This document shows positions 2,859 through 25,192 of a DNA stretch of 46,671 nucleotides, in pieces. The first letter of the stretch is position 1, and every line of letters begins with the position of its first letter. Source of the DNA: a phage; assembly GCA_030877765.1 (NCBI GenBank), contig GCA_030877765.1_4853.1. One strand, given 5' to 3'. A model generated the notes under the pieces. The model did no database searches. It was given only the letters and a program-made list of their open reading frames with translations, and was not told where the DNA came from. Position numbers and translations under genes: made by a program.

Positions 2859-3803
2859 TTATAAATTAAACTGTTTTTTGAACCATTCAGGCGTTTCCAT
2901 TTCTATGACAGGATTACCCATTGAATAACCGGGCCACGAATTGGCTTTTTTGCACGCCTTGTAAATTTCCATAGCGCCATGCAACTGAATTCGACCGATG
3001 CGTAATTGCTCTTCAGTCAAGCGAATTAACGCAGGAATAAATGGTGCTTTCTTTTCCTGAACGAGAAGATTAACAGAGCGTGGCGCATGACCATATGCCG
3101 CAACAAACATGTCGTGCTGCATCGCCATTTTCATAAAGTACCCAAGTCTCGCAGCATGACGGAAAAACTCTTCTGGCTTGGCGCTCACCGCTGTTTTGTA
3201 GTCGATGATGTCGCCACCTTTGGTAAGGCAGTCAAAGCGAACTTTTGCCTTCTCTCCGTTAAGTTCACCTAGAATTGACACTTCAGCATAAGCACCAGCG
3301 AGAAGACTGCTGTAATAGCTGTTTGCGTGGATTACAGCACGCATTTGCTGAATAGCGTCATAATCACCACCTTCCAGCATTTGCTTTCCTACAGCAGCTT
3401 TTTCAGCCTCTTCACGGATGACATCGTAAATTTTCACTGGCTCGCCAGTCGCCTGGATGATTTTGATCACCTCAGCTTTCGACTTTCCTGAAAGTCCTTT
3501 GATGCCTCGTTCTTTTGCCCATGAGTTCATATCACTTACAGTAACAAGCAGGTCATCACCAAAATCTTCTTTGGTTGGCATTCGTGCATATTCAGCATCA
3601 AAACGCTCTGGTTCAAGCAACGCAGTATGGCTACCTGTACCGAATATAAGAGCTTTTGATTGCTCATCCTCTTCGTCTTTGTATCGCCATGCTGCCGGGC
3701 ATCTGTCAAGTATATTCCATAATCCAGAACCATTAATGTGCTCTGTGTCAGCATGATAATCCTGATTGCTTAATTCATTGTTGAAATAAACTCTCATCAT
3801 CAC
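2859..3803 (-). CDS. PD-(D/E)XK family nuclease (RecB/Cas4-like exonuclease)
   Basis: GGDIIDYKT motif with downstream acidic residues; same operon as ATPase and SSB as in phage recombination modules. Confidence 0.65.
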   Translation of the reverse strand: MMMRVYFNNELSNQDYHADTEHINGSGLWNILDRCPAAWRYKDEEDEQSKALIFGTGSHTALLEPERFDAEYARMPTKEDFGDDLLVTVSDMNSWAKERGIKGLSGKSKAEVIKIIQATGEPVKIYDVIREEAEKAAVGKQMLEGGDYDAIQQMRAVIHANSYYSSLLAGAYAEVSILGELNGEKAKVRFDCLTKGGDIIDYKTAVSAKPEEFFRHAARLGYFMKMAMQHDMFVAAYGHAPRSVNLLVQEKKAPFIPALIRLTEEQLRIGRIQLHGAMEIYKACKKANSWPGYSMGNPVIEMETPEWFKKQFNL

Positions 3804-4426
3804 TCTCCGTGGTTACAGAATTCTTTATGCATCTTTTCTCTGAATTTCATCACAGACAACCTCGCTCTCTCAATATCATTGAATAACCCAAGATGGTATC
3901 TTTTCCCGTTAACATCACAGTAAGCATGCCACTTTTTAACCTGTTTTTGCCAATACACACCTTTAACTCCTGATGTGTTATTTTTTGGTTTTTTAGCGTT
4001 ATACTGGTTCTGCATATTTGTTGCGATTCTTAAGTTGCAAATCCTGTTATCGTCACGCACACCGTTAATGTGATCAATTTGACCTTCAGGCCAGAAACCA
4101 TAATAAATCAACCATACCAAGCGATGCGCGTAGTATCTTTTATTATTTATGCTTATCTCTATGTATCCGTTATGTTTTTTCCTGCCAGCGACACTACCCT
4201 TTCTTACACCTCCACCCGTCTTATTTCTAATGAAAACCCCTGTTTCATGGTTGTAATTTAAGCTATCCAAAACAACATAACGTGGTATTCTTTTTCTTCT
4301 TCCTATGGTGTTTGACTCTGCACTTCCCTGAGCAAAATCTTGCTTTTGCAGTTCCGATAAACTCATTTCCACAAACCTCGCACTTCTTAACGGTGATAGC
4401 CATTTCTTACCCTCTATTGTAATCAT
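3800..4426 (-). CDS. HNH-AP2 homing endonuclease (paralog 1 of 4)
   Basis: AHRLVWLIYYGFWPEGQIDHINGVRDDNRICNLR (HNH) followed by NTSGVKGVYWQKQVKKWHAYCDVNGKRYHLGLF (AP2). Confidence 0.85.
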   Translation of the reverse strand: MITIEGKKWLSPLRSARFVEMSLSELQKQDFAQGSAESNTIGRRKRIPRYVVLDSLNYNHETGVFIRNKTGGGVRKGSVAGRKKHNGYIEISINNKRYYAHRLVWLIYYGFWPEGQIDHINGVRDDNRICNLRIATNMQNQYNAKKPKNNTSGVKGVYWQKQVKKWHAYCDVNGKRYHLGLFNDIERARLSVMKFREKMHKEFCNHGE

Positions 4427-4471
4427 TTTCCGTTACATTGCAAGTAACTTTTATTTGTTACTAACGATACA

Positions 4472-4897
4472 TTAATCTACGTCATCCAGCAAGCCAAAAT
4501 AGAAAAGCGTGGCTTTTTTTAATTCATCAAGCCCATAAGCTATGGCAGCATAATGACCAAGCCTGCACATCTCTGTTAGCACTGCTGATTGATCCTTGCT
4601 CACCCTGCTTTTGCTTTTATCGCGGCGCTTTGCTTCAATCATCCCACAACTGTGATTTACCCCCGGAGTCATTATCACATTGTCGCCTATACCAGCCTTA
4701 ACCCCCATCTTCTGGCGCTTCAGCACAAACTGCACCCTGCTTGATGTGCCAGTTTCGTTGGGTACATGAAACCACAGAACATCAGGGAAGCGGTGTTGCA
4801 TCCATGTTCCATAACCCATCTGGTCAGTCTCCTCTTTTGGGCATTCTCCTCGATAACCGCTATCAAATACCCATATACCGCTATCAAGCTGCTTCAC
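4472..4897 (-). CDS. VRR-NUC domain nuclease
   Basis: FHVPNE ... GMIEAKRR pattern typical of VRR-NUC (PD-(D/E)XK fold). Confidence 0.65.
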   Translation of the reverse strand: MKQLDSGIWVFDSGYRGECPKEETDQMGYGTWMQHRFPDVLWFHVPNETGTSSRVQFVLKRQKMGVKAGIGDNVIMTPGVNHSCGMIEAKRRDKSKSRVSKDQSAVLTEMCRLGHYAAIAYGLDELKKATLFYFGLLDDVD

Positions 4898-4907
4898 TTT
4901 GTTATCC

Positions 4908-6812
4908 TTAAAATTCTTTTCGGTGGATTATGTCGCGACCTTTATCATTAATACGATGCGTGATGCGTTTTGGCGCTTTAATCAACCCCGCATACATCAT
5001 GAACTGCTTGGCGTTCTGGTATTTCAATATTTTCCCAGCCATTGACTTATCATCAAGGTGTGGGAATACAGCCTTTGCCTTGAACATGTTTTTCATGTGA
5101 GTTGCGCCGCCATAAGGGTAGAAAACTTCATTAGCCCAGCCTTCTTTGCCATCACAACGGTTAATCCAGTAGCGATATAAAATCCCCTCTCCGTCCTTCG
5201 TTAGTTGAACCTTGAAATCCATAACATCAGCCCACTCGTTATCTGTATAAGCACGCTCATTCAGTGCCGAATTAGGGTCGCGCAACACGTGATCGCAATG
5301 TCTGCAATAGCGCGCAGTGGGGTCGTTTTTAGTGCCGCAACCATCATCAAAAATCCGGATTCCGTGCTTATCAAAACCGCAACGGATGTAACTGAAAAAT
5401 TCTTCGCAGCGACCATCTGGAGATAGCGGGTCTTTCCCTATGCATCGACGCGCATATGGGCTGTTCATTGTTCCACATGTATGACACGGAACTTGTTCGC
5501 CACTGCGTTTTGAACGTTGCGCTTCAGCCTCTTCCAGAATCGGGTCTTCATACAGCTGACCAAGCTCAAACATCGTGCCAGAGAAATCAAGAACCAGATG
5601 GTCTTCTTTATGATACCCGGCATCAATTTGCTCTTTCTTCAGTAGGCGCATTCCGCGACCAAGAAGCTGGACAAGGAGAGTTAGCGACATTATTTTTCGC
5701 AATATGCAGCTCGTATCCCATAACGGTATATTTACGCCAGTGGTAAGGGCGGCTATCTGGAATGTGAATTTTTTACGCCCGGTGTATGCATCTTTTAGAG
5801 CCTTCCTTCTGGCTTTTGACCCCATATCTTCTGTAACTATTGAATAACTTCCTTCGGGTAGGTATTTTGCCGCCTCCTGACAATGTTTTTTACCAGCACA
5901 TGTAATCAGTACGCCGTTTCTGTTTTTAGTCAACTCCATAACCTTGAGCATGATTTTCTGCGTCAACGTACCTTGCTCAAGAATTTCTTTCTGCATCTGC
6001 TTGAGCTGCTCGGCGGTAAAGTCCTGAGTACCATCAACATCTGAACCATGAAAATCCGAAAGGTCATAATGCAGACTATCAACATCATGAAGACCAAAAA
6101 TTGTTGGAACAAGAAAACCGTTTTCAACCATGTACTTGGTGTCTATGTTGATAATCTCTTTCTTCCAGAAAGCGCCTTTTATTGATGTAGTTCCGCGAAA
6201 CGGTGAGCCTGTATAACCTATTATTCTCAACTCATGGCCATGCTTATCTTTACACCTTTTCATTAGCTCATTAATTATCACTGCATACTGCGTATCACCA
6301 TTATTAACAACATCAATGTCATTAACCATATGATTTTCATCGATCAGCAGGAATCTTGGGCAAAAGTCAGAGAGCGCACCTTTTGCAATAACATTCCCAT
6401 GCTCATCTTTTTTATCAAACAAAGCATTTACAACAGTACCCTCAGAACCACAGATTATTGGGTACGTAGAACTTTTCCTACCCAACGAAGCACTGAATAG
6501 CGAGTTTCTAACACCAAGCAACCATAGCTCTTCCGCATCTTGCTCCACTATTTCGCCCTGTCTTGATAAAATCATCCCTGAATAGCCCATCTCCTGAAAA
6601 CGCTTTGCTATCATGGCAATCATCAGTGACTTTCCGCTACCGACACTTGCTGTTACATAGCTTGGGCCAACATAATGACGAATCACATCGCCAGTTAACT
6701 TATATATCAACCACTGATAGGGTCTTGGCTCGATATCACCAGTATCCAGATAAGATTTCAGCAGATTAATATCAATCTCTGAAATCATTTTGTCGATTTT
6801 ATGCATTACCAA
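4908..6812 (-). CDS. SF2 DEAD/DExH-box DNA helicase with C-terminal Cys-rich zinc-finger region
   Basis: Walker A ASVGSGKSLM, DExH box LLIDENHMV, helicase C-domain motifs, C-terminal CHTCG...CRHCDH clusters. Confidence 0.85.
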   Translation of the reverse strand: MVMHKIDKMISEIDINLLKSYLDTGDIEPRPYQWLIYKLTGDVIRHYVGPSYVTASVGSGKSLMIAMIAKRFQEMGYSGMILSRQGEIVEQDAEELWLLGVRNSLFSASLGRKSSTYPIICGSEGTVVNALFDKKDEHGNVIAKGALSDFCPRFLLIDENHMVNDIDVVNNGDTQYAVIINELMKRCKDKHGHELRIIGYTGSPFRGTTSIKGAFWKKEIINIDTKYMVENGFLVPTIFGLHDVDSLHYDLSDFHGSDVDGTQDFTAEQLKQMQKEILEQGTLTQKIMLKVMELTKNRNGVLITCAGKKHCQEAAKYLPEGSYSIVTEDMGSKARRKALKDAYTGRKKFTFQIAALTTGVNIPLWDTSCILRKIMSLTLLVQLLGRGMRLLKKEQIDAGYHKEDHLVLDFSGTMFELGQLYEDPILEEAEAQRSKRSGEQVPCHTCGTMNSPYARRCIGKDPLSPDGRCEEFFSYIRCGFDKHGIRIFDDGCGTKNDPTARYCRHCDHVLRDPNSALNERAYTDNEWADVMDFKVQLTKDGEGILYRYWINRCDGKEGWANEVFYPYGGATHMKNMFKAKAVFPHLDDKSMAGKILKYQNAKQFMMYAGLIKAPKRITHRINDKGRDIIHRKEF

Positions 6813-7069
6813 ATCCTCGCACCAAGACGTTCAATTGTTTGTTTCTTTGTTTCATCATCTATTCCGCTATAAAAATACATATAACTAAGATTCCATAGAT
6901 AATCTTCTGGTCGCTCATCGGCAAACAAATCATCCCACTCAAAAATCCATTCTCCAGTTCTCTGTCTTCTGTATATGGTTAGCCATGTATTGCTTCGTGG
7001 CGGGTATCCGAAGGCAACAGGGATTGGCTTGCCATGAAAAATCCTCTTAAAAATGCTATCAAGGAACAC
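6806..7069 (-). CDS. Hypothetical protein (87 aa)
   Basis: ORF in operon orientation, overlapping the helicase start. Confidence 0.45.
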   Translation of the reverse strand: MFLDSIFKRIFHGKPIPVAFGYPPRSNTWLTIYRRQRTGEWIFEWDDLFADERPEDYLWNLSYMYFYSGIDDETKKQTIERLGARIW

Positions 7070-7084
7070 TGCTATATCCTTTTA

Positions 7085-7125
7085 TTGATGTTTCTACGTC
7101 AGTTAGCTTATACTCAATCTACACC
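7085..7125 (+). promoter_or_regulatory. Sigma70-like promoter for the primase gene
   Basis: TTGATG, 18 bp, TATACT, then AATCTACACC at the predicted start region. Confidence 0.4.
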
Positions 7126-7144
7126 AACAATCAAGGGTAAATTT

Positions 7145-8098
7145 ATGAGATACGACTGGAAAGACATTGAGCCAAAAATGATCGGAAATTGGCAAGCTGC
7201 CATCATGTCTATCGTCAATGTGGATAGCAGAGTTTTCAATGGCAAGCACCAGCCATGCCCGTCATGCTCAGGAAAAGACAGGTATCGCTTTGATGACAAC
7301 TTCGAAACAAAAGGCGATGGCGGCGCAATCTGCAATCAGTGCGGTTCCGGCAGCGGCATGAATTGGCTGATGAAACTCTCCGGAATGAGCTTTCCTGAAG
7401 CGCTGGAGGCACTTGGTGGATTCCTGAATATGCACCCGCGTGAAAAGCTGGAGGCAATCAGGAAAGAGCTACCGAAGATAAATCACAGCGATGACTTCAT
7501 CACCGAGCAGGAAGTCGCAGCAATCATGGCTAAAACGACTCGTGTCGCGATGAATGAGTGGACTTTGATAAATGGTATTGGTTGCGACGTTAACGTCACC
7601 AGAGGCAAATCTGGAGAACTTATTGCGGTTGAGATGATGCGAGCTGACACAATGAAACTGTGCAACGTGGCATTCATTGGCATGGATGGTGATTCAATCA
7701 GAACGTTTTTCCGCGCAGGATACAACAAGGACTCAGCCATCAACGGCAAACTCACGCGCGGCGCGATAAGCCCAATCGGAGAAGACAACGGGAAGTTCAT
7801 TTACCTGGTATCTGATTATGCCGATGCGTGGAAATGCCACTACTTCACTGGCGCTCATGCCTGGTGCTGCTGGTCGCCGGAAAACATGTGGGAGGTTGTG
7901 CGCTCGGTTAGCGATGAAACGAAGGCGAGATTGCGCTGCATAGTTAATTATAAATTCGACGAACTTTGCGCTGCGGAAAATGCAGGGCTTCCGGTGATGC
8001 TTCCTGATGATGCTGAAACAATAAGGATGGCAAAGAGAATCAGGAGAAAGATTTATGACGCTGGCGAGCTGATAGAGAAAATGCCAGTAAGCAGATAA
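7145..8098 (+). CDS. DNA primase-like protein with N-terminal zinc-binding domain
   Basis: CPSCSGKDRYRFDD...GGAICNQCGSGSGMNWLMKLSGMSFPEALEAL resembles phage primase zinc ribbon; ATG 7145 has a GGGT RBS; track ORF start at 7034 is probably too long. Confidence 0.6.
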   Translation: MRYDWKDIEPKMIGNWQAAIMSIVNVDSRVFNGKHQPCPSCSGKDRYRFDDNFETKGDGGAICNQCGSGSGMNWLMKLSGMSFPEALEALGGFLNMHPREKLEAIRKELPKINHSDDFITEQEVAAIMAKTTRVAMNEWTLINGIGCDVNVTRGKSGELIAVEMMRADTMKLCNVAFIGMDGDSIRTFFRAGYNKDSAINGKLTRGAISPIGEDNGKFIYLVSDYADAWKCHYFTGAHAWCCWSPENMWEVVRSVSDETKARLRCIVNYKFDELCAAENAGLPVMLPDDAETIRMAKRIRRKIYDAGELIEKMPVSR

Positions 8099-8103
8099 AA
8101 TAA

Positions 8104-8127
8104 ACCATCCGACTGGAGGGTTTTTGT
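8104..8127 (+). terminator. Putative terminator after primase
   Basis: Imperfect stem ccatcc/ggaggg followed by TTTTTGTT. Confidence 0.4.
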
Positions 8128-8477
8128 TATGCTTTGATGTTAACTTTTATTGCGAACACTTCCACCGGGTCAGGACCGAAGTGTGGGTGGGTGATGGTCT
8201 TAACCGTCCATCCATCGTATGGGATATCAATACGCCTGGATTTATCGTCCTTCTTTGGATATCCTTTTGTGATAATTAACCTTTCGTACTTCCTTCCAAT
8301 CTGTCCGCTGTCTTTAAAGTTAATAAGGCGCTTCTTCCAGTAGTCATTAAAAAGGCGATACTCTTCCGTTTTCTCTCCGCGAATCATGGCATCGAAGTAT
8401 TCACCTTTGACAGCAAGTTGCAGGTTAGCCATTACCGCGCCTCCAGTCTCCATACCGCCTGACCATCCGGCTGGCAT
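8127..8477 (-). CDS. ASCH domain protein
   Basis: GEKTEEYR motif typical of ASCH; likely start at MANLQLAVKGEYF. Confidence 0.5.
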   Translation of the reverse strand: MPAGWSGGMETGGAVMANLQLAVKGEYFDAMIRGEKTEEYRLFNDYWKKRLINFKDSGQIGRKYERLIITKGYPKKDDKSRRIDIPYDGWTVKTITHPHFGPDPVEVFAIKVNIKA

Positions 8478-12695: not shown

Positions 12696-12849
12696 ACAGA
12701 AAGTCTGGCAACTCGCAAAGCAGCACGAATTAGACGATTTCATCGAGAAGGTTGCAAAGACATTCCCTGACGCGCTTGAAGTCGTTCATGTGCAGACGCG
12801 AAATGAAAATGCATGGTGCTACACAAAAAATCATACAAATGGTAGATGA
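12682..12849 (+). CDS. Hypothetical small protein (55 aa)
   Basis: ATG at 12682 within track ORF 12616-12849. Confidence 0.3.
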   Translation: MQTTKQKVWQLAKQHELDDFIEKVAKTFPDALEVVHVQTRNENAWCYTKNHTNGR

Positions 12850-13276
12850 AATGAAGCTAACAAAAAAACAACGCGAAGAGCTACGCATGAAGTTCGGTGG
12901 TCGCTGTGCTTATTGTGGGTGTGAGCTACCCGAGAAAGGTTGGCATGCAGACCATGTTGAACCAGTGCTACGTAAATCTGAGCAGTGCATGAAGGCAGCG
13001 GCGAAAGGGATTTTCAAGCTGAAGGCAACCGGTGAGCTATATCGACCAGAAGCAGAGCGACTGGAAAACCTTTACCCTGCGTGCGCCCCCTGCAATCTGA
13101 TGAAAACTTCCTATTCCCTGGAAATGTTCAGGAAGCAGGTATCTCTTCAGGTTGCTCGTGGGCGCAAAAGCAGCATGAATTTCCGCACTGCAGAGCGTTT
13201 CGGTCTTATCGCCGTGGTGGAGAAACCAGTTGTTTTCTGGTTTGAGAAATACCAGGAAGAGAACGAAAAAAAATAA
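12839..13276 (+). CDS. HNH endonuclease (terminase-associated type)
   Basis: CAYCGCEL...HADHVEPV...ENLYPACAPCNLMK: Cys4-type HNH motif, positioned just upstream of the terminase genes. Confidence 0.8.
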   Translation: MVDEMKLTKKQREELRMKFGGRCAYCGCELPEKGWHADHVEPVLRKSEQCMKAAAKGIFKLKATGELYRPEAERLENLYPACAPCNLMKTSYSLEMFRKQVSLQVARGRKSSMNFRTAERFGLIAVVEKPVVFWFEKYQEENEKK

Positions 13277-13410
13277 ATGTGTTTATGATGCTCTGTTGGC
13301 AAGCGCGATAATGATGGTGTACAATAAACGCATAACCACCATTGCTTTCACTTATATCATCACCCAACCTTTAAACCGCCTTGTGCGGGTTCTTTTTTAT
13401 CTACGTCTAT

Positions 13411-13450
13411 GTGTTAAAATTAGCGTATGTGTGTTAAAATTAGCGTATGT
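13411..13450. repeat. Perfect 20-bp tandem direct repeat x2
   Basis: GTGTTAAAATTAGCGTATGT at 13411-13430 and again at 13431-13450, between the HNH gene and terS. Confidence 0.9.
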
Positions 13451-13476
13451 GAGTTACTAAAAGAGCACAAAAAGAC

Positions 13477-13917
13477 ATGGCGAATCCAAATCCAAAACAC
13501 AAGTTTTCCTCTACAAATCAACCGCCTCCGCGCGGTAAGAGTTATCGCACAGTGCTGCTTGAGGCGCTTCGTGCTGCAAATACACCGATGAATGAGATTG
13601 AATTCGTCACGTATTACATCAATAGGGCCATGACATGCGAAGACGCTCAGGCAACTGGTATGCTTCGAGAGATATTCCTGCGGCTCAACCCAATTCCTAA
13701 GCCTGTAGCTCCTCCTGTGGAGTTTGACTTCCCTGCTGACGGAACTCCGGTTCAGAAAATGGATGCAATCATCAAGGGTGTCTCCACTGGCGTCGTGCCT
13801 GCTGACATCGGCAAGATGATGGCTGACATTATCAAGTCTGGCCTTGATATTCAGGAAATCACCGAACTCGCAGCGCGACTTGAGCGACTGGAGAAATTGC
13901 TGGAACAGCAACAGTAA
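13477..13917 (+). CDS. Putative terminase small subunit
   Basis: 146-aa protein upstream of the large terminase with helical, coiled-coil C-terminus; assigned by position and size. Confidence 0.5.
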   Translation: MANPNPKHKFSSTNQPPPRGKSYRTVLLEALRAANTPMNEIEFVTYYINRAMTCEDAQATGMLREIFLRLNPIPKPVAPPVEFDFPADGTPVQKMDAIIKGVSTGVVPADIGKMMADIIKSGLDIQEITELAARLERLEKLLEQQQ

Positions 13918-14019
13918 CTGATTTATAATAATTAATGCGGCAAAGGGTAGCTCCCTGCCTGGATTGGTCTCCGGGCTGCCGCATCCATCCAGTGACCGCC
14001 TTTAACCGAGGATTCAATA

Positions 14020-14532
14020 ATGCGACCCTTAAAAGAAGAAAAACTCACGCAAGACAGGCTGAAAGAGTTGCTGCATTATAACCATGATACTGGTATTTTC
14101 ACATGGGTTCAGCGCGCCTCAAAAAGCGTAAGAGTTGGTAATTCAGCTGGCAGTAAGAATAAGTCAGGCTATATAGATATACGCATCGATAAGTCTTTAC
14201 ACAAAGCTCATCGGCTTGCGTGGCTTTACATTTATGGTGTGTGGCCCAATGGGAAAATAGATCACATCAATAACGTGAAGACAGATAACAGAATCTGCAA
14301 CCTGAGAGAAGCAAGCAATAATGAAAACGGATGGAATGCTGGTAAACCATCGACAAATACGTCAGGAGTAAAAGGTGTGAGTTGGGATGCAGAGAAAAAT
14401 AAATGGAAGGCGCATTGCAGGGTTTTTGGGAAAAAATATACAGTAGGTAGGTTTTCATCAAAAGAATATGCTGAGAGAGCCGTGGCGGAGTTCAGAGAGA
14501 AACATCACGGGGAGTTTTTTAATCATGGCTAG
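14020..14532 (+). CDS. HNH-AP2 homing endonuclease (paralog 2 of 4), between terS and terL
   Basis: AHRLAWLYIYGVWPNGKIDHINNVKTDNRICNLR followed by NTSGVKGVSWDAEKNKWKAHCRVFGKKYTVGRF. Confidence 0.85.
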   Translation: MRPLKEEKLTQDRLKELLHYNHDTGIFTWVQRASKSVRVGNSAGSKNKSGYIDIRIDKSLHKAHRLAWLYIYGVWPNGKIDHINNVKTDNRICNLREASNNENGWNAGKPSTNTSGVKGVSWDAEKNKWKAHCRVFGKKYTVGRFSSKEYAERAVAEFREKHHGEFFNHG

Positions 14533-15949
14533 AAAAAGACTCTCAAGTGTGGCAATCGAAAAACTTGAACAGGCGGTTGGAAACTCAACTTCAAAGCCTG
14601 AGTCTGCTGTATTTGGCATTGTTAACAAACTGCTTGCCGATGGTACGCCTAATGTTATAAAGCGCCTAAAAATGACATCAACAGGCGTATCTGAAACAAA
14701 CGAAGAACCAACAATACTCATTCCCGAGAGAATGGAATTACTGCTTTATCCTCGCCGTTTCAAAGTGTTCTATGGAGGTAGGGGCAGCGGAAAGACGGCT
14801 AACGTTGTTTCTTACCTTATAGAAAAGGCAAGATTTCGCAACAGCCGCGTCGGATGCTTTCGTGAGATACAGAACTCAATCAAAGAATCAAGCTATGCCG
14901 AACTGGTTGATGAGATAAACAGGAAAGGACACACTCAGGAATATCGTTGCGTGGATGGTGAAATAACCCACCATTCAACGAGGTCAAAGTTTGTTTTCCG
15001 TGGTTTGTGGCGAAATATAACCGCCATTAAGGGTATGGCTGGCCTTACAGATGTATTCTGTGAAGAATCAGAAAATATCAGCCAGGTTTCATGGGATACG
15101 CTAATCCCAACAGTCCGCGCCGCTGGCTCTGAAATTATTATTGTTTTTAACCCAAACAAAGAGACGGACCCGACATGGACTAACTTTGTTGCGCCTTATA
15201 TTGACAAGATGGTTGACGGCATATATCAGGATGATGACATCGTTGTTGTTAATGTTAATTACATCCACAACCCGTGGTTCACGGAAGAACTTAAGCAGCA
15301 CATGAACCAGATGAAAGCTGTGGATTATGATCGCTACCTTTGGGTGTATGAAGGCTTATTCAACAAGCGGTCTGACGAAGCTGTTCTCGGGGGGAAATGG
15401 CAAACACTCGACTTTGAACCATCTCCTGAGTGGGGTGGGCCTTACTACGGCATTGACTTTGGTTTTTCTCAGGATGCAACAGCAGCAACTGAATCATATG
15501 TAGAAGATTTGGGTGATGGACGAAGAAACCTGTATATCTATCGTGACTTTGCAAAGGTTGGCCTTGAGATAACTGACACGCCGGAAGCGATGCGCTCAGC
15601 ATTCCCAAATTCAGAGAAGTACAGATGGTATGGGGATTGCGCAAGACCTGAAACAATAAGCCATATACGACGCTCTGGATTCGATATTCATCCGTGCGCA
15701 AAATGGCCGGGGAGCATTGAGGACGGTATTACGTGGCTGCGTGGGTGTGACAGGATTTACGTGCACTCAAGATGCAGGCACGTCATTGAAGAGATGACAA
15801 TGTACAGCTATAAGGTGGACAAATTAACAGGTAACATACTCCCTGATATAGTTGATAAATACAATCACGCGATTGATAGTTTACGCTATGGACTTGGAGA
15901 TCACATCGTTCAACGCGGTAGCGGGATGCTAATCCGGCGCAGTCGATAA
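14525..15949 (+). CDS. Terminase large subunit
   Basis: Walker A YGGRGSGKT, ATPase and nuclease domain layout; ATG 14525 overlaps the HNH stop. Confidence 0.9.
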   Translation: MARKRLSSVAIEKLEQAVGNSTSKPESAVFGIVNKLLADGTPNVIKRLKMTSTGVSETNEEPTILIPERMELLLYPRRFKVFYGGRGSGKTANVVSYLIEKARFRNSRVGCFREIQNSIKESSYAELVDEINRKGHTQEYRCVDGEITHHSTRSKFVFRGLWRNITAIKGMAGLTDVFCEESENISQVSWDTLIPTVRAAGSEIIIVFNPNKETDPTWTNFVAPYIDKMVDGIYQDDDIVVVNVNYIHNPWFTEELKQHMNQMKAVDYDRYLWVYEGLFNKRSDEAVLGGKWQTLDFEPSPEWGGPYYGIDFGFSQDATAATESYVEDLGDGRRNLYIYRDFAKVGLEITDTPEAMRSAFPNSEKYRWYGDCARPETISHIRRSGFDIHPCAKWPGSIEDGITWLRGCDRIYVHSRCRHVIEEMTMYSYKVDKLTGNILPDIVDKYNHAIDSLRYGLGDHIVQRGSGMLIRRSR

Positions 15950-19565: not shown

Positions 19566-19580
19566 GGGCTTGGTTTTGTC
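19553..19580. terminator. Bidirectional terminator
   Basis: Stem gccctc/gagggc with 5-nt loop, then TTGGTTTTG. Confidence 0.7.
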
Positions 19581-19648
19581 TTGTGAGCATACACAGAACA
19601 AATATTATTATCGCATAGCACAATATCTCTACGATGCTGAATATTGTT

Positions 19649-20293
19649 TTAATCATCCAGTTTCACGCCTGGAATTTTTCCTGCTGCAATGGCTTCATAA
19701 ATTAGCTTGGCCTCGTCCTCGCGCCTGTAATCTTGAGCTGCCATTTCTAACACCGCGCAGATAGACTCAAGTACAGCCTCATGCTTCTTTTCTGCTTCTG
19801 TGCGTAGTGGTTTTAGGCTTTCCGGTACGAAGCAGCATGACCGACCAGCACCACCTTCATCCCAATAGCAAACAGCCACATCGTTTCCGTCCGTTGTTGT
19901 CTTGTGCGCTACAACTTCCATTTCAGTGCCAGCATCAGGAATCCAGTCATTGCAGTATCCTAACTTTGGATTAAAGAAGAATTCTACTTTTGCACCAACT
20001 GGCGGCAGGCCTTCTCCATTCCATGTCTGCTTTTGCAATGCTGCTAGCGCGGATTCATACAAGTCGCGAGTTATCATACAATAATCCGTGGCTACGCTGA
20101 CATAGCGACCGGGTATGGGGATTGCCACGGTGTACTGAAATGGCACATCAAAACCATCGCTATATCCCTTTGGGAAACAAAAAGCAATTGTGATACTGTC
20201 ACCATTGAAATCACCAACTCGACACCTCTCAGCACCATCAGGCCACCCACCACGCTTAGGTAATTCTTGAACTAACAGGTCGATAAGTTTCAT
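19649..20293 (-). CDS. Hypothetical protein (214 aa), last gene of leftward cassette A
   Basis: Long ORF on the opposite strand to the structural genes, coupled to the upstream paralog-A gene. Confidence 0.55.
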   Translation of the reverse strand: MKLIDLLVQELPKRGGWPDGAERCRVGDFNGDSITIAFCFPKGYSDGFDVPFQYTVAIPIPGRYVSVATDYCMITRDLYESALAALQKQTWNGEGLPPVGAKVEFFFNPKLGYCNDWIPDAGTEMEVVAHKTTTDGNDVAVCYWDEGGAGRSCCFVPESLKPLRTEAEKKHEAVLESICAVLEMAAQDYRREDEAKLIYEAIAAGKIPGVKLDD

Positions 20294-20592
20294 TTTGTTT
20301 CTCCCAATGCTTTATTAACCGCGGCACGTGCATTATCCAGAGCGCGACGCTTGCTTGATGTTGTCCAGCATTTTCCGGAGTGGTCGTCGTAGATTTCCAG
20401 AAGTTGCTGGAGTGCTGATAACAGGTCAGGAGATGCCGCTATTAGCCTTGCGTTATGCCATTGCTCGGTTTTATCACCGTTATATGTTGGAGTGAATGCA
20501 ACCTCGACACCAATATCCGAGATAACATCTGGCGCGTTATCATCACCAACAACAACTTCCCATTTTCCATGCGTACCTTTAAATTCTTTCAC
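20290..20592 (-). CDS. KEFKGT-motif protein, paralog A (likely GTG start at 20592)
   Basis: Shares MKEFKGT-G-W N-terminus, AA-P-LL-ALQ and NKALG C-terminal motifs with the 33777-34118 product; GAGGT RBS. Confidence 0.55.
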   Translation of the reverse strand: MKEFKGTHGKWEVVVGDDNAPDVISDIGVEVAFTPTYNGDKTEQWHNARLIAASPDLLSALQQLLEIYDDHSGKCWTTSSKRRALDNARAAVNKALGETK

Positions 20593-20600
20593 ATCCAACC

Positions 20601-20744
20601 TCACTTAATATACTCAACAATCTCAACTTCACGCATCTGCACCAGGCCAAATGGTGCAACCACCTTACCGCACGGACGGATTTTGATTTGCTCAAGGTTG
20701 AACACTCCGCAGCGTCCGTTTTCTTTGAATTTGACCATTACCAT
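20601..20744 (-). CDS. Small protein (47 aa)
   Basis: ATG start; stop overlaps the downstream GTG; below track cutoff. Confidence 0.3.
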   Translation of the reverse strand: MVMVKFKENGRCGVFNLEQIKIRPCGKVVAPFGLVQMREVEIVEYIK

Positions 20745-20746
20745 AA

Positions 20747-20899
20747 TTAATACCCGTTTTTCTTGGCTAATTGTTGCGCACGTTTCTTCGTGTACCCACA
20801 GGCCATCAGGCGCTTGACCTCGTTGCGGCGCCTTGCGAAATGGTACTCACGAGAATTAAATGCACATTCGTTGCTAAAGTTAACATTACGTGGATTCAT
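20747..20899 (-). CDS. Small basic protein (50 aa)
   Basis: GAGGTG RBS 6 nt upstream; Arg/Lys-rich; first ORF after the leftward promoter. Confidence 0.3.
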   Translation of the reverse strand: MNPRNVNFSNECAFNSREYHFARRRNEVKRLMACGYTKKRAQQLAKKNGY

Positions 20900-20931
20900 C
20901 TTCATCACCTCATTCATCACTTGATATAGAT

Positions 20932-20977
20932 ACTATGCACCACCAACCAATCTACGTCAACACCATTGTGATAGAAT
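20932..20977. promoter_or_regulatory. Divergent promoter pair
   Basis: Minus strand TTGACG, 17 bp, CATAGT; plus strand extended -10 TGaTAGAAT. The core CACCACCAACCAATCTACGTCAACA recurs at 34160-34190. Confidence 0.55.
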
Positions 20978-21003
20978 TAATCATTATTTGAACTGGAGGC
21001 AGA

Positions 21004-21282
21004 ATGAAACTATCGCAACGAGGCGTGGAGACGTTTGGAATTACCGATGCCGTGAATATATCGCCTTACATCACTACCGAGACAACGCAGAATCAGTTCG
21101 ACGCGCTGGCAAGTCTTGCCACCGACATTGGCATTTACGCGTTCCGTAAATCAACGCTTCTGAAGAAGCACAACCTCCGCTGCTTCTCATGTGCTGTTGC
21201 GCATTTCATCGCGTGGGGCGAGAAGACTGGCGACAAAGCAAAACGCAAAGCTGAAAAAGAGGTTTACTGGTATGGCTATTAG
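21004..21282 (+). CDS. Lysozyme-like remnant (GH24/P22 gp19-type C-terminal subdomain only)
   Basis: QNQFDALASLATDIGIYAFRKSTLLKKHNL...AHFIAWGEK parallels the P22/T4 lysozyme C-terminal region as recalled from memory; catalytic Glu/Asp/Thr segment absent; has its own RBS (GGAGG). Confidence 0.5.
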   Translation: MKLSQRGVETFGITDAVNISPYITTETTQNQFDALASLATDIGIYAFRKSTLLKKHNLRCFSCAVAHFIAWGEKTGDKAKRKAEKEVYWYGY

Positions 21283-21736
21283 TAAAAACATGAAGGCGTT
21301 TCTGGATATGCTGGCGTACAGCGAGGGCACTGATAACGGGCGGCAGAAAACCAATAATCATGGTTATGATGTGATTGTTGGCGGCTCACTGTTTACCGAC
21401 TATTCCGACCACCCGCGCAAGCTGATTAGCCTGCCAAGGCTGGGCATTAAATCCACCGCCGCCGGTCGCTATCAGGTACTGGCTAAGTTTTATGATGCGT
21501 ACAAAAAGCAATTGCGTTTACCGGACTTCTCCCCCGCATCGCAGGACGCCATTGCAATGCAGCTAATCCGTGAATGCAAGGCCACCGCTGATATTGAGGC
21601 TGGTCGCATTGCTGATGCCATCCATAAATGCCGCTCCCGCTGGGCCTCATTGCCGGGCGCTGGGTATGGTCAGCATGAGCAGAAGCTGGATAAGCTGATT
21701 CAGGTATACAAAGAGGCTGGCGGAGCTGTGGCATGA
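21272..21736 (+). CDS. Endolysin, lambda R-type lytic transglycosylase
   Basis: KAFLDMLAYSEGTDNGRQKTNNHGYDVIVGG..FTDYSDHPR...GRYQ...WASLPGAGYGQ closely tracks lambda R as recalled. Confidence 0.9.
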   Translation: MAISKNMKAFLDMLAYSEGTDNGRQKTNNHGYDVIVGGSLFTDYSDHPRKLISLPRLGIKSTAAGRYQVLAKFYDAYKKQLRLPDFSPASQDAIAMQLIRECKATADIEAGRIADAIHKCRSRWASLPGAGYGQHEQKLDKLIQVYKEAGGAVA

Positions 21737-21972
21737 AAAAGCTAAGCAACTGGCTGCTCGCCGCGTGGATTTCATTCTGCTCGCTGTTACAACTATGGCC
21801 TGATGCAATGATGCATGTGTGGGTAATGATGCCGGATGACCTGAAAGCAGCGCTACCGCCAATCGTGGTCAAAGGTGTGAGTTACTCAATTATGCTTGTC
21901 GGCATCCTCGGCAAAATGCACGGCATGAGGAAGGAAAACCGGAGGCTGCGCAATGATGTCGATTCTCGTTAA
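21733..21972 (+). CDS. Putative holin (two TM helices, charged C-terminus)
   Basis: TM1 LSNWLLAAWISFCSLLQLW, TM2 VSYSIMLVGILG, tail KMHGMRKENRRLRND; ATGA-coupled to the endolysin. Confidence 0.45.
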   Translation: MKKLSNWLLAAWISFCSLLQLWPDAMMHVWVMMPDDLKAALPPIVVKGVSYSIMLVGILGKMHGMRKENRRLRNDVDSR

Positions 21973-22444
21973 ATACTGGCGACCGCTGGCAATTATTATA
22001 ATTGTTGCCGCTGGCGCGTTGTGGGTGGCAAATAAAGTGTCCGGTTATGGCGAGCAACAATATGCCGCCGGATACGCGAAGGCAGTCGCAGAACAGAAGG
22101 CCGCAGACGAACAAGAGGAGCAACGACGCAATGCAGAACTGCAAAAGATTCAGGCCGACGCACAGCAAAGGATTGATGCTGCGCGCAATGATGCTGTTAA
22201 TGCTGCCGCTAAGTCTGGCAGGTTGCAGCAACAACTCACCAGTATCCGCAAGCAGCTCGTCGGATATTCCACCGCTGAGTCCATTGGCAACCCAGCCGCA
22301 GAAACCGGAGTTTTGCTTGCAGACGTGCTCCGCAAATCTGTCGAAAGAAATCAACAGCTGGCAGATTACGCTGACAGGGCGAGAGAGGCAGGATTGACGT
22401 GTGAGGCACAGTATAATTCTCTGCGTAATAAAAAAGCCCCGTGA
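21953..22444 (+). CDS. Rz: Rz-like i-spanin
   Basis: N-terminal TM (LAIIIIVAAGALWV) followed by Gln/Ala-rich coiled coil. Confidence 0.8.
   Translation: MMSILVKYWRPLAIIIIVAAGALWVANKVSGYGEQQYAAGYAKAVAEQKAADEQEEQRRNAELQKIQADAQQRIDAARNDAVNAAAKSGRLQQQLTSIRKQLVGYSTAESIGNPAAETGVLLADVLRKSVERNQQLADYADRAREAGLTCEAQYNSLRNKKAP
22176..22397 (+). CDS. Rz1: Rz1-like o-spanin lipoprotein, embedded in +1 frame within Rz
   Basis: MLRAMMLLMLPLSLAGCSNN: signal peptide with LAGC lipobox; Pro-rich mature region. Confidence 0.7.
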   Translation: MLRAMMLLMLPLSLAGCSNNSPVSASSSSDIPPLSPLATQPQKPEFCLQTCSANLSKEINSWQITLTGRERQD

Positions 22445-22460
22445 TGGGGCTTTGTTTTAA
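22433..22460. terminator. Bidirectional terminator
   Basis: Stem agcccc/ggggct overlapping the Rz stop, followed by TTTGTTTT. Confidence 0.75.
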
Positions 22461-22478
22461 CCTTCTCCGTAGCCAATG

Positions 22479-22862
22479 TCACGCATAAAGCGCCTCCATC
22501 TTGTACCCAAACATAATTGCATTCTGATGCTCAGTGCTACCAGAAAACACCAGATAGCGTTTACCTCGATTATCCGTAACGATGTAGGCAGCTGGTGAGT
22601 TTTCCTTCCTAAATCTGGCTTCGTCATCACTCCCTTCATACATCCTCCCACTCGCTGGCAGATACAAATCGAATGTTTGAATTTCCGTTCCGCTGCATTC
22701 ATTGCTACGTTCATTGAACAGGATAGCCAATCTTGGGTTGCCATTGGAATGCTTTGCAGGGAATGCGATTCTCCAGCCATCGTACATATACTGACTTGGG
22801 TAGGATAGCCATGACTTACCGCGCCTACCCTCCGTAAGAATCGGCTTACTCGCCATTATGAT
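22479..22862 (-). CDS. Hypothetical protein (about 127 aa from MASKPILTEG)
   Basis: Track ORF 22479-22904; internal ATG preferred. Confidence 0.45.
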   Translation of the reverse strand: MIMASKPILTEGRRGKSWLSYPSQYMYDGWRIAFPAKHSNGNPRLAILFNERSNECSGTEIQTFDLYLPASGRMYEGSDDEARFRKENSPAAYIVTDNRGKRYLVFSGSTEHQNAIMFGYKMEALYA

Positions 22863-23121
22863 CCTCCACAATCCGCACCAGTGAGCACTCAAGATTCGGT
22901 GCATTGTAATTACCAGCCAGAAACAGCACGCTACCAGTGCTAATAAGCACCTGCTTCGCGTTCGCCTGCGACAGATTCTGCACGATGAATTGCGCTGTTT
23001 CTGTGCCGATTTTCAGCACTGCGCTGCCGTCGCTGTTCAGTGATACAAGTTGTGCGGAAGTGTCAGTAATGTTGGTGAAGTTCGCGTTTCGCTGCGCGAT
23101 TGTGATGTCGCAAAAAGACAT
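22846..23121 (-). CDS. Hypothetical protein (91 aa)
   Basis: Operon-coupled ORF. Confidence 0.4.
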   Translation of the reverse strand: MSFCDITIAQRNANFTNITDTSAQLVSLNSDGSAVLKIGTETAQFIVQNLSQANAKQVLISTGSVLFLAGNYNAPNLECSLVRIVEDHNGE

Positions 23122-23423
23122 TATTTAATCTCTCCGTTCAGTTCATTAACAATTAACGTTGCATAGCCAGCAATATCTTTCCAGCTGTCATCATAAGTCG
23201 GGTCGCCATTCAGAATGCGCCCAATCTTGTGCTGAATCATGTCGAGCGCCTCGCGTTGACTTGGTGTGAGATTGCGCCAGCCATCTACCTTGCGCATCAC
23301 ATCTTTCAACTCCTGCATAATTTCAGCGCCGTCTTTGAATTTACCGTATCGACTACCGCGTTCGGTGATGAGTCGCTCTGTTGCGTCAGTATGGCGCTTA
23401 TCGCCCGTGATTTGTGAACTCAT
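23121..23423 (-). CDS. Hypothetical protein (100 aa)
   Basis: Operon-coupled ORF. Confidence 0.45.
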   Translation of the reverse strand: MSSQITGDKRHTDATERLITERGSRYGKFKDGAEIMQELKDVMRKVDGWRNLTPSQREALDMIQHKIGRILNGDPTYDDSWKDIAGYATLIVNELNGEIK

Positions 23424-23910
23424 TGTGATGCATTCTCCTGAATTCTTTTATTTTTGCTTCTGCTTCTCTTATGTCGGAAAAGTAACCAACTGTGAATCTT
23501 TTGCCATTTACTCCAACTCTTGCATGCCACTTGTTGTGCGATGAACTCCAGTTAACCCCCTTGATACCGCTAGTGTTGTTTTTGTTCATTGCTTTGTTGT
23601 GGCTATTCTCAAATTTGCTGGCCTCCCTTAAATTGCACGCCCTGTTGTCATTGCGAATGCCATTAATGTGGTCAATCATTTCACTTGCTGGCGCGCCATG
23701 AATGCATATCCATGCCAATCTGTGAGCAAGAAAAGCCCTACCGCAAAGAATTATTTGCACATATCCATCTGGCTTTAAGTAGCCAGCCACACTCCCTTTT
23801 TCTGCAATCCTATTCCTTGTCTTTAGCCATTTAAATTCCCCAGTTAGTGGATTGTAGTAAAGGTAACTCAATATAAACTCCCTACTCGGCTCATCTCTCC
23901 TATGCCTCAT
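23398..23910 (-). CDS. HNH-AP2 homing endonuclease (paralog 3 of 4)
   Basis: AHRLAWICIHGAPASEMIDHINGIRNDNRACNLR followed by NTSGIKGVNWSSSHNKWHARVGVNGKRFTVGYF. Confidence 0.85.
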   Translation of the reverse strand: MRHRRDEPSREFILSYLYYNPLTGEFKWLKTRNRIAEKGSVAGYLKPDGYVQIILCGRAFLAHRLAWICIHGAPASEMIDHINGIRNDNRACNLREASKFENSHNKAMNKNNTSGIKGVNWSSSHNKWHARVGVNGKRFTVGYFSDIREAEAKIKEFRRMHHNEFTNHGR

Positions 23911-24113
23911 TTCTCATCCTCTTTCATTGTCACCCTATTATTCTCGTCAACACTGAAGTTGGCCCGAATCAAATCATACATATCTTCCTTAGGCATATCA
24001 GCCAGCGCCACATAGCAACGGGCGAAGTAGCGAACATCACGGAGTGTCAGCGGTTGTCGCTTCTCCACAATGCTGGTGATAATGTCCATCGGCTCGCGTC
24101 GTGGTCTTGGCAT
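23907..24113 (-). CDS. Hypothetical protein (68 aa), first gene of leftward cassette B
   Basis: AAGGAG RBS; ATGA overlap with the HNH gene. Confidence 0.5.
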   Translation of the reverse strand: MPRPRREPMDIITSIVEKRQPLTLRDVRYFARCYVALADMPKEDMYDLIRANFSVDENNRVTMKEDEK

Positions 24114-24140
24114 ATTTACTACTCCTTCTCGAAAAACATC

Positions 24141-24201
24141 TTGACGTTTCTACATCATTTAGTCAATACTTGTTGACGTAGATTGTACCACAACGGAAAA
24201 G
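24141..24201. promoter_or_regulatory. Divergent promoter region with two TTGACG boxes
   Basis: TTGACG at 24141 and 24173, the second as TGTTGACGTAGATT; separates leftward cassette B from rightward genes. Confidence 0.4.
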
Positions 24202-24212
24202 GTGATGTGGAA

Positions 24213-24410
24213 ATGCGATACAAAGAAATAGCAGCGAGATACCAGAAGGAAGTTCGCGAGGTTATGGAAATCCTTAACGTTCGCGAGGATACCATTAAGT
24301 TTGTGGAAACCGCCATGTGTTCACTGGCGCTTGAAGCGGAGGTTGCGGGTCGTGAAAAGGCTGACGAACTTATATCTGCGGTGGTTTATAGTTCAACCAG
24401 TAACGGTTGA
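24213..24410 (+). CDS. Hypothetical protein (65 aa)
   Basis: ATG 24213 with a GGTGATG RBS region; track ORF starts at a TTG. Confidence 0.4.
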   Translation: MRYKEIAARYQKEVREVMEILNVREDTIKFVETAMCSLALEAEVAGREKADELISAVVYSSTSNG

Positions 24411-24470
24411 AGATGAAGGTTATCTGTGCGTTGAGCACGTTGTTATCAAATTCTACGGGAGAAATTATAA

Positions 24471-24665
24471 ATGGCGCATGACGAACTGTACGAAGAATCG
24501 TTAATCCAGAGGTTGAATGAAGTTGAGCGCACTCGCGAATGGCTGGAGTGCGAGTTACGAGAAGTGCGCAACCGCCTGCAACGCAAGCGCAGTCAGCAAA
24601 GAGATGTCATCGACTGGTCTGGGGGTACACCTAAATTTAACAATCTGGGAGAATGGTTGAAATGA
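24471..24665 (+). CDS. Hypothetical protein (64 aa)
   Basis: Track ORF in operon orientation. Confidence 0.4.
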   Translation: MAHDELYEESLIQRLNEVERTREWLECELREVRNRLQRKRSQQRDVIDWSGGTPKFNNLGEWLK

Positions 24666-25192
24666 GCAACATTAGTAAGGAAAGCATTTTAAAGTTCCTC
24701 CAGCATGATGAAAATACAGGAAACTTTCTATGGATTGATAATTTCTCAAGAAAATCAAAGAAAGGGAAGGTGGCTGGAGGTATTACATCGCATGGGTATT
24801 GGAGAATTCAACTCCCCATCGGGAGGTTTTACGCACACAGAATGGCGTGGATTGTTTGCAATGGAGATATACCAAACGGATATGAGATTGATCACATAAA
24901 TGGGAACAAGAAAGATAATCGCATCAGCAACCTAAGATTGGTCACAAGAGGTCAAAATGTTATGAATGTAGGCGTGAAAAACAATAATACAAGCGGAGTT
25001 AAGGATGTTGTTTGGGACTCTTCGCGAGAAAGGTGGAGGGTTCAAATTACAGCCAATGGCAAGCATTATTATGGAGGTAGATTCTCGTCAATAACACAAG
25101 CAAAAGAGGAGAGGAACAGGCTCATAAAGATGGTTCACGGGAAATTTTTGAATACAAAAGGTGAGCAATATGACACTACTAATGAACGATGA
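24653..25192 (+). CDS. HNH-AP2 homing endonuclease (paralog 4 of 4)
   Basis: AHRMAWIVCNGDIPNGYEIDHINGNKKDNRISNLR followed by NTSGVKDVVWDSSRERWRVQITANGKHYYGGRF. Confidence 0.85.
   Translation: MVEMSNISKESILKFLQHDENTGNFLWIDNFSRKSKKGKVAGGITSHGYWRIQLPIGRFYAHRMAWIVCNGDIPNGYEIDHINGNKKDNRISNLRLVTRGQNVMNVGVKNNNTSGVKDVVWDSSRERWRVQITANGKHYYGGRFSSITQAKEERNRLIKMVHGKFLNTKGEQYDTTNER

Follow-up and report, generated by a model that had tools for sequence, protein, structure and literature searches.

How does a phage genome come to carry four related, intact and widely diverged nuclease genes in four different places, and are these genes mobile elements or working parts of the phage? The question is posed by a 46,671-nt phage contig, GCA_030877765.1_4853.1 (hereafter, the window; all coordinates refer to it), in which four genes, denoted here A to D (Table 1), encode proteins that combine an HNH nuclease core with an AP2 DNA-binding domain. 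In all likelihood, A–D are free-standing homing endonuclease genes (HEGs) of the HNH_3-AP2 ('HNN-AP2') class that were independently acquired by a siphophage of the Skatevirus/Deseoctovirus cluster. The homing endonuclease interpretation had been proposed in an initial annotation of the window and is supported by four lines of evidence, namely, the intact core residues, the existence of relatives that lack the inserts at all four sites, a co-conversion-like patch around A and an identity boundary at D.

An alignment of the four proteins extends from end to end and has 44 invariant columns, which include the motifs AHR..W, IDHIN, DNR, NLR, NTSG.K.V.W and GK...G.F. All four pass the gathering score (24.8) of the Pfam family HNH_3 (PF13392), with 60.1, 51.1, 42.1 and 71.9 bits for A, B, C and D, respectively (E from 7e-11 to 3e-20), and all match PHROG 99, 'HNH endonuclease', with E from 1e-58 to 1e-70. 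The Pfam AP2 family (PF00847) matches all four at an equivalent C-terminal position, with 26.1, 22.1, 23.0 and 17.5 bits (E 1e-5 to 5e-3). NCBIfam has a model for none of these proteins, nor for the zinc-ribbon peptide at the 5' end of A that is discussed below. Thus, the initial annotation was correct in placing here four ORFs with a shared three-part architecture (an N-terminal motif, an HNH core and an AP2 domain) and in regarding them as clearly diverged: in the multiple alignment, the identities of the other three proteins to A are 50, 45 and 36%, and the pairwise identities altogether lie between 36 and 50%. When a profile made from 61 family members is run against every ORF of at least 25 aa, exactly four copies are detected in the window, and neither degenerate remnants nor truncated copies are found among these ORFs. 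Each of the four genes is an ORF of its own between neighboring genes, outside introns and inteins, with the junctions located at the stop or start codons of the neighbors.

The profile of A–D retrieves one significant solved structure, that of the homing endonuclease I-HmuI (1U3E, E 1.8e-6), with an alignment that spans the strands preceding the nuclease core through the DH...N...N residues; the 'N-terminal motif' of the initial annotation corresponds to this I-HmuI-like N-terminal region. In the alignment to 1U3E, the nuclease core is devoid of CxxC zinc pairs and has the His-Asn-Asn register of the I-HmuI-type beta-beta-alpha-metal nucleases, with the Asp-His pair and the two Asn aligned to D74-H75, N87 and N96 of I-HmuI. 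The catalytic residues D117, H118, N130 and N139 (numbering of A) are invariant in A–D, and the Asp, the His and both Asn are invariant in the 61 homologs as well. The AlphaFold2 model of D, which was built on the alignment of these homologs, is confident (pLDDT 90.9, pTM 0.81) and contains, in its C-terminal part, three strands (residues 119–122, 127–134 and 137–144) and a helix (147–165). In the Foldseek search of this model against PDB, 1u3e comes first (E 4.7e-4) and AP2 domains come next, including TEM1 (7et5, probability 1.00), AtERF1 (1gcc; rmsd 1.5 A over 49 columns, TM(target) 0.63, probability 0.98), WRINKLED1 and PfAP2. A–D represent one family, in which an N-terminal sheet resembling that of I-HmuI is followed by the HNH_3 core and then by AP2.

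The window belongs to a siphophage of the Skatevirus/Deseoctovirus cluster, for which the BASEL authors use the collective name 'Skatevirus and relatives'. The two halves of the window were compared by megablast with 50,697 phage records, and both match several hundred related siphophage genomes with Salmonella, Escherichia, Klebsiella and Shigella hosts; the classified relatives come from the genera Deseoctovirus, Skatevirus, Swiduovirus, Macdonaldcampvirus and Saltrevirus. The nearest relatives are Escherichia phages 6947, HC6 and HC8A, Salmonella phage ST1UNAM and Escherichia phage ZCEC08. The window has no end-to-end match among the records; it is composed, as a mosaic, of blocks that resemble 6947, ST1UNAM and ZCEC08, and this mosaicism runs along the whole genome, far beyond the surroundings of the four HEGs. 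Among the relatives that were fetched, the number of family copies varies from three in ZCEC08, two each in ST1UNAM and 6947 and one in Bas77 to zero in C1. The relatives do not all carry identical inserts: empty or differently filled sites exist for A, B, C and D. The comparison is informative with respect to co-conversion for A and D, given that the closest relatives all carry B and C.

Orthologs of A (at least 76% amino acid identity) are present in nine records, always between the ORF annotated as VRR-NUC and the exonuclease VIII gene. The slot occupied by A (3798–4467) consists of 37 nt in C1 and holds a 59-aa ORF in VSt472 and a 91-aa ORF in ST1UNAM and ZCEC08. Compared with ST1UNAM, A sits in a sharply delimited divergent patch within an almost identical backbone, with a single mismatch in 1700–2972, 84 mismatches in 2973–3797, 45 in 4473–4790 and 2 in 4791–6000. 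Phage 6947, which carries A, differs from the window at only four positions across 1928–4810, and Bas77 is 99–100% identical to the window over 2500–3750, next to A, compared with ~90% elsewhere. A divergent patch in such a backbone is the signature of co-conversion, and on the strength of these alignments we interpret the patch around A as a probable co-conversion tract; this supports the homing endonuclease reading.

A different trace is seen at D. The initial annotation had D start at 24653, and an ORF does extend from that position; most likely, translation actually begins at the ATG at 24662, which forms an ATGA overlap with the upstream stop codon, a choice consistent with the ZCEC08 annotation and with a 176-aa database cluster. 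D sits exactly between a 64-aa ORF and a Lar-like gene (start at 25170) and ends 23 nt inside the latter. The upstream ORF runs directly into the Lar-like gene in ST1UNAM and 6947, with an ATGA overlap, and in the window and ZCEC08, D starts at this same ATGA; in C1 and Bas77, the slot holds a 73–76-aa ORF. The window, ST1UNAM and ZCEC08 are essentially identical from ~22.2 to 24.6 kb, the identity of ZCEC08 to the window continues through D to 25340, and from 25341 onward, all three diverge by ~10%. Hence D lies at a sharp, one-sided identity boundary which, so far as the aligned genomes tell, is an exchange boundary. ZCEC08 is the only carrier of D among the phage records (the next best match is 44% identical), and in metagenomic and read assemblies, D belongs to a cluster of 139 members at 96% identity. 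As a separate observation, the zinc-ribbon half of the Lar-like restriction-alleviation protein (25170–25406, +) is hypervariable across all relatives and its C-terminal 25 residues are nearly invariant; the allele shared by the window and ZCEC08 lacks four codons directly after the start.

The slots of B and C are likewise variable. B is found immediately upstream of the large terminase subunit gene (TerL) in all records that have it, 25 with at least 90% identity and three with ~62%, and its last codons overlap the TerL start (ATG at 14525). C1 and Bas77 lack B, and the slot (13911–14524) contains a 52-aa hydrophobic ORF instead. In the comparison with VSt472 (NC_054644; window 14020–15949 versus VSt472 548–2477), the synonymous divergence is 0.21 for B and 0.57 for the adjoining TerL, so that the spread of B seems to postdate the divergence of the backbone. 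The folding of the 100-nt leader of B yields a z of -1.5, which is not significant. C is present in three records only (ZCEC08, ST1UNAM and EcoIv28_Lewi), with the next best match 48% identical. The start codon of the downstream DUF6378 gene (23121–23423, -) lies within the 3' end of C. In 6947, the slot of C contains a 60-aa ORF and the N-terminal domain of a 159-aa phrog_17775 protein; the DUF6378 gene of the window covers only positions 74–163 of the 163-position phrog_17775, retaining the complete DUF6378 domain without the N-terminal domain. The comparison with 6947 therefore indicates that the arrival of C was accompanied by a deletion of ~400 nt and by a new start codon.

The family as a whole is detected by tblastn in ~3,500–3,700 of the 50,697 phage records, or roughly 7%. 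Within the cluster, each of the four genes has a sporadic distribution: the carriers number 9 of the 180 records that share the flanking DNA for A, 25 plus 3 of 176 for B, 3 of 170 for C and 1 of 170 for D (these counts include GenBank/RefSeq duplicates). Beyond the orthologs, the next best match is at most 53% identical for every copy. Because the distance between the four genes (36–50% identity) is about the same as their distance from family members in unrelated phages, A–D appear, by this measure, to be independent acquisitions, and the pairwise identities rule out a recent intragenomic duplication. The term 'paralogous', which the initial annotation applied to these genes, accordingly holds in the sense of family membership and fails in the sense of recent duplication.

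The two copies with orthologs distant enough for estimates are subject to purifying selection, with dN/dS of 0.18 for A (versus CHRF_10034) and 0.24 for B (versus VSt472), compared with 0.035–0.058 for the neighboring exonuclease VIII and TerL genes. The GC content of A–D is 38–42% against 46.6% in the genome, and AGA and AGG account for 67–88% of their Arg codons against 20% in 15 backbone genes; both features are consistent with a foreign origin or with low expression. Scans of 12.5–26 kb for the promoter consensus (24 occurrences compared with 20.9 in shuffles) and the terminator consensus (18 compared with 13.1) gave numbers that do not differ from those of the shuffles, and none of these signals was associated with the HEGs.

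The domain architecture, the intact catalytic residues, the purifying selection, the sporadic distribution at fixed slots, the patch around A and the boundary at D are all observed in the sequences; that A–D are active nucleases, whether they nick or make double-strand cuts, and which targets they recognize are matters of inference. Under the homing scenario, the N-terminal, I-HmuI-like beta-sheet would be a DNA-binding region; in the beta-beta-alpha-metal core, the Asp-His pair would provide the general base and a metal ligand, with one Asn playing a structural role and the other binding the metal; and the C-terminal AP2 would be a second DNA-binding domain. When a phage with the gene infects the same cell as a relative without it, the enzyme would nick or cut a specific site in or near the empty slot, and repair from the gene-carrying genome would copy the gene, together with several hundred flanking bases, into the recipient.

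Several observations weigh against this scenario. None of the four proteins reaches the AP2 (PF00847) gathering score of 33.3 bits, and a precomputed PF00847 match exists for about half of the homologs listed; the predicted fold of D supports the AP2 assignment despite the sub-threshold score. The orthologs of C and D are 98–100% identical to the copies in the window, too close to gauge selection. The direction of exchange around A is ambiguous, being compatible with a gain in the window lineage or a loss in the ST1UNAM lineage. A biochemical study of a close relative of A–D was not found in the literature searched. Finally, the slots are cassette-like and hold alternative small ORFs instead of being plainly empty or filled, so that ordinary recombination at conserved gene boundaries could yield part of the pattern without a nuclease.

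This last point leads to the alternative that fares best, under which A–D are passive cassettes ('morons') exchanged by ordinary homologous or illegitimate recombination, with the nuclease irrelevant to their spread. Such cassettes would fit the acceptance of unrelated small ORFs by every slot (91 aa in ST1UNAM and 59 aa in VSt472 for slot A, 52 aa for slot B, 73 aa for slot D) and the pervasive, genome-wide mosaicism. They do not account for invariant catalytic residues under purifying selection or for a patch at A that is tightly centered on the gene within 2.5 kb of near-identity, and nuclease genes at exchange boundaries have been documented in other phages (PMC10448857); we consider passive exchange unlikely. 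It is very unlikely that one or more of the copies is a domesticated AP2 DNA-binding regulator that lost the nuclease, in the manner of the plant AP2/ERF factors and the phage CasPR anti-CRISPR repressors. AP2 domains derived from HEGs have indeed been repeatedly co-opted as sequence-specific repressors (bioRxiv 10.64898/2026.02.23.707548; PMC10448857), but the CasPRs and the plant factors have no HNH, whereas A–D keep the complete HNH_3 core with every catalytic residue, and the sporadic distribution disfavors a role needed by the phage. That B is a non-selfish HNH accessory of the terminase needed for packaging, like HK97 gp74, is likewise very unlikely: B is always directly upstream of TerL, overlapping its start, in at least 25 records from several genera, and the ZCEC08 paper lists homing endonucleases (ORF 21 and ORF 25) under packaging (PMC12001532). 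A protein of the gp74 type would, however, be expected to be a PF01844 HNH kept beside the terminase in all relatives. B is an HNH_3-AP2 protein like A, C and D, and the 52-aa ORF takes its place in C1 and Bas77 and also in most of the ~176 relatives with this terminase region. In the comparison with VSt472, moreover, B has a lower synonymous divergence than TerL, an indication of separate, more recent spread.

Table 1. Coordinates of the HEGs and other features of the window
Feature	Coordinates	Strand	Details
Divergent patch versus ST1UNAM	2973-4790		1,818 nt: left flank 825 nt, cassette 670 nt, right flank 323 nt
HEG A	3800-4426	-	annotated ORF, 208 aa; HNH_3 ~4004-4135; AP2 ~3824-3973
HEG A, family-homologous body	about 4290 to 3800	-	
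Zinc-ribbon ORF, 46 aa, MAITVKKCEVCGNEFIGTAKARFCSGKCRVKHHRKKKK...	4263-4403	-	strong Shine-Dalgarno; overlaps the 5' end of ORF A
A-rich junction AGG AAG AAG AAA AAG	4290-4304	-	constraint switches from the ribbon frame to the HNH frame; candidate +1 shift region
Cys4-type HNH gene	12788-13276	+	PF01844, 26 bits versus cut-off 21.4; PHROG 2118
HEG B	14020-14532	+	170 aa; HNH_3 ~14203-14331; AP2 ~14362-14502
HEG C	23398-23910	-	170 aa; HNH_3 ~23602-23730; AP2 ~23434-23571
HEG D	24662-25192	+	176 aa (179 aa from 24653); HNH_3 ~24830-24964; AP2 ~25007-25108
Zinc-ribbon protein, PHROG 1035 'endonuclease VII'	30190-30996	-	E 4e-19

The 5' portion of gene A raises a question of its own. The ORF 3800–4426 noted in the initial annotation exists and contains the HNH-AP2 body, but its first ~45 codons are not conserved as a protein. 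They are the +1 frame of a short ORF that encodes a CxxC...CxxxC zinc ribbon followed by a basic tail, and translation in all frames shows that the HNH frame of A, likewise, is the ribbon frame +1. The ribbon ORF is kept in all 11 sequences compared, in two slots, with much more divergent protein sequences in three of the 11 (sal3, VLCpiS13a and SeLz-2). The 5' 170 nt of A are 84% identical, as DNA, to the 5' end of VSt472 gp68, a family member located upstream of the helicase gene; the HNH-AP2 bodies of the two are only ~50% identical as proteins. For ribbon codons 2–33, pN/pS is lowest in the ribbon frame (0.33), compared with 1.29 for the annotated frame and 0.84 for the third, and in three sequences, the annotated frame contains a stop at ribbon codon 5. 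Because of this stop in three relatives and the pN/pS of 1.29, the annotated 208-aa ORF starting at 4426 is rejected as the true product, and the database annotations of the N-terminus of A are probably wrong. By-eye comparison of the codons of A orthologs locates the switch of the constrained frame within AAG AAA AAG AAT.

The same layout is common in the cluster. In a tblastn search with an artificial ribbon-HNH fusion as the query, the 50 best-ranked records all come from the Skatevirus cluster and match as two pieces (~58 additional phage records cover at least 80% of the fusion). These matches span 397–409 nt for 132 aa, with 397 nt corresponding to an excess of one nucleotide, and the 50 records comprise two distinct lineages with the two-frame layout in two different slots. 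In Vibrio phage pYD21-A, the ribbon and HNH parts match in one in-frame piece, confirmed to be a single continuous ORF, and the phrog_3593 profile aligns across the artificial fusion in one stretch. In every variant, the junction has a Lys run rich in A, in which an AAA codon precedes A or G; there is no heptamer common to all of them, and no stimulatory RNA structure was found at the frame junction of A (folding z +1.6, not significant). By eye, every variant also contains an internal ATG in the HNH frame with a Shine-Dalgarno-like motif, at a varying position. Purifying selection acts on each side, on the ribbon (pN/pS 0.33) and on the HNH body (dN/dS 0.18); such a pair of overlapping ORFs in the 0 and +1 frames, like the in-frame fusion in a relative, is what a programmed +1 frameshift gene would show. 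A word-indexed protein search with the ribbon peptide yields three separate ORFs of 45–50 aa and no in-frame fusions. An exhaustive search reveals the ribbon to be a generic DUF2116-like treble clef that is often repeated in tandem and in some cases precedes other phage nucleases at the N-terminus; it is, accordingly, not specific to HNH-AP2.

We would put at about an even chance that gene A has two separate products, a ribbon peptide and an HNH-AP2 protein translated from the internal ATG. A more tentative possibility, on balance improbable, is that in A and its relatives in ~50 Skatevirus-cluster records, a conserved +1 recoding event fuses a 37-residue ribbon to the HNH-AP2 protein; the underlying event could be slippage, either ribosomal or transcriptional, within the A-rich Lys run. 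The remaining probability belongs to a correct annotated ORF or to chance. If recoding does occur, only a small, fixed proportion of the product would be the full-length, fully targeted endonuclease, and A would be a frameshift-controlled homing endonuclease, of which no description was found in the literature searched. The two-frame layout is the only part of this locus that may be new biology. Two other mechanisms were set aside. The AGG that follows the ribbon was considered as a 'hungry codon' shift site, an idea abandoned because AGA and AGG dominate the Arg codons throughout A–D. Termination-reinitiation near the ribbon stop was rejected as, when the sequences are read by eye, four of the 11 (CHRF_10034, EcoIv28, sal3 and SeLz-2) have no ATG, GTG or TTG there.

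How do A–D compare with the known systems? By both profile and fold, the closest solved structure is I-HmuI of Bacillus phage SPO1, with which the four proteins share a beta-sheet region before the HNH core and the His-Asn-Asn variant of this core without zinc-binding cysteines. I-HmuI is a nickase that is encoded inside a group I intron and has a helical (helix-turn-helix) C-terminal DNA-binding part, whereas A–D are free-standing genes with an AP2 domain, and the identity between them and I-HmuI is only ~20–28%. In being free-standing, intergenic and sporadic, A–D also resemble the Seg and Mob genes of the T-even phages, which cut a nearby site in the gene-less phage and co-convert flanking markers; the Seg proteins are GIY-YIG enzymes, and the Mob proteins are HNH enzymes without AP2.

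The domain pair itself has long been described. The HNH-AP2 homing endonuclease family of cyanobacteria, ciliates and phages (RB49 and Felix 01, among others), which was put forward as ancestral to the plant AP2/ERF factors (Magnani, Sjolander and Hake 2004, as cited in PMC10448857), has the same N-terminal HNH and C-terminal AP2, and from what is cited of it, A–D do not differ in kind, coming from another phage lineage. The Xanthomonas phages Xp10, OP1 and Xop411 carry dispersed, free-standing HNN-AP2 genes in variable numbers (Lee et al. 2007, PMC2248197). A–D share with these genes the domain pair, the HRLAW, WP, DNR, NLRE and EN boxes, and the presence of several dispersed copies per ~44-kb siphophage genome, with numbers that differ between close relatives; they differ in the host and phage group, and truncated, degenerate copies exist there and not in the window. 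In Vibrio phage ICP1, the IPA-HNH genes are free-standing, combine HNH with AP2 and are located at exchange boundaries between related phages (Barth et al. 2023, PMC10448857), which the patterns at A and D match; unlike the HNH of IPA-HNH, which is too divergent for Pfam HNH_3, those of A–D are all well above the HNH_3 threshold. The ZCEC08 paper already lists the orthologs of C and D as homing endonucleases (PMC12001532). As a class, then, A–D are routine, given the PHROG 99 membership, the HNH or homing annotation in the closest GenBank relatives and the publication of the domain combination as early as 2004. The evidence for mobility that the comparisons yield is cleaner than usual: a single genome with four intact, diverged copies, each having sequenced relatives with an empty or alternatively filled site, and with a sharply bounded co-conversion-like patch around one of them, is a clean natural example. 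The pairs of gene-plus and gene-less genomes are ready substrates for locating the targets of AP2-guided nucleases, a group in which no member seems to have been characterized biochemically, and they show how HEGs shape mosaic boundaries in Skatevirus-cluster phages, which are considered for therapy.

The window contains two more nuclease-like genes, which bring the total to six and jointly, with A–D, make up 7.5% of the window; each of the two is present in some relatives and absent from others. The initial annotation had recognized a separate Cys4-type HNH at 12839–13276, and the PF01844 match above the cut-off bears this out, with the correction that the gene is annotated from 12788 in Bas77. 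This gene is absent from C1, where a clean gap of 472 nt corresponds to window 12825–13296 (C1 positions 35396 and 35395 are adjacent). A block of Bas77 corresponding to 12788–13910 is ~99–100% identical to the window, with flanks that are 10–25% divergent. The exception is a variable 100-nt cluster (13388–13487), located between the Cys4 HNH gene and the ORF 13477–13917, with ~20–22 mismatches per 100 nt; outside this cluster, the block is ~100% identical to both 6947 and Bas77. The ORF 30190–30996, described initially as an HNH-like zinc ribbon, matches PHROG 1035 'endonuclease VII' and nothing else, with no matches in the Pfam search. ST1UNAM, ZCEC08 and VSt472 have this gene, and C1 and Bas77 lack it; in 6947, 59 nt replace window 30158–31081. 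PDB sequence searches with the Cys4 HNH and PHROG 1035 proteins produced marginal matches only.

The Skatevirus cluster has many alternative slots for endonuclease genes. Around 1755–1770, the window contains an empty site for a further HNH gene: the genes for the single-stranded DNA-binding protein (SSB) and the recombinase are separated by 14 nt, and the same interval holds an HNH ORF of ~500 nt in 6947 and ZCEC08. VSt472 (NC_054644), a Skatevirus relative, has six or seven genes annotated as endonucleases in yet other slots: one separates the portal gene from the head-morphogenesis gene, and others follow the tape-measure gene, adjoin the HK97 gp10-like gene or precede the helicase gene.

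Two other features of the window are unrelated to the nucleases. Its ends (1–1259 and 45998–46671) lack DNA matches in ST1UNAM and 6947, where this position is occupied by the gene for a K1-type endosialidase tailspike; the receptor-binding module appears to have been swapped, and the contig has the appearance of a complete, circularly permuted genome that was opened within the gene in the tailspike position. One tRNA-Ile gene, with the unusual anticodon AAT (36625–36701, -), is called by ARAGORN, and a tRNA-Ile is annotated in 6947 and ZCEC08 as well.

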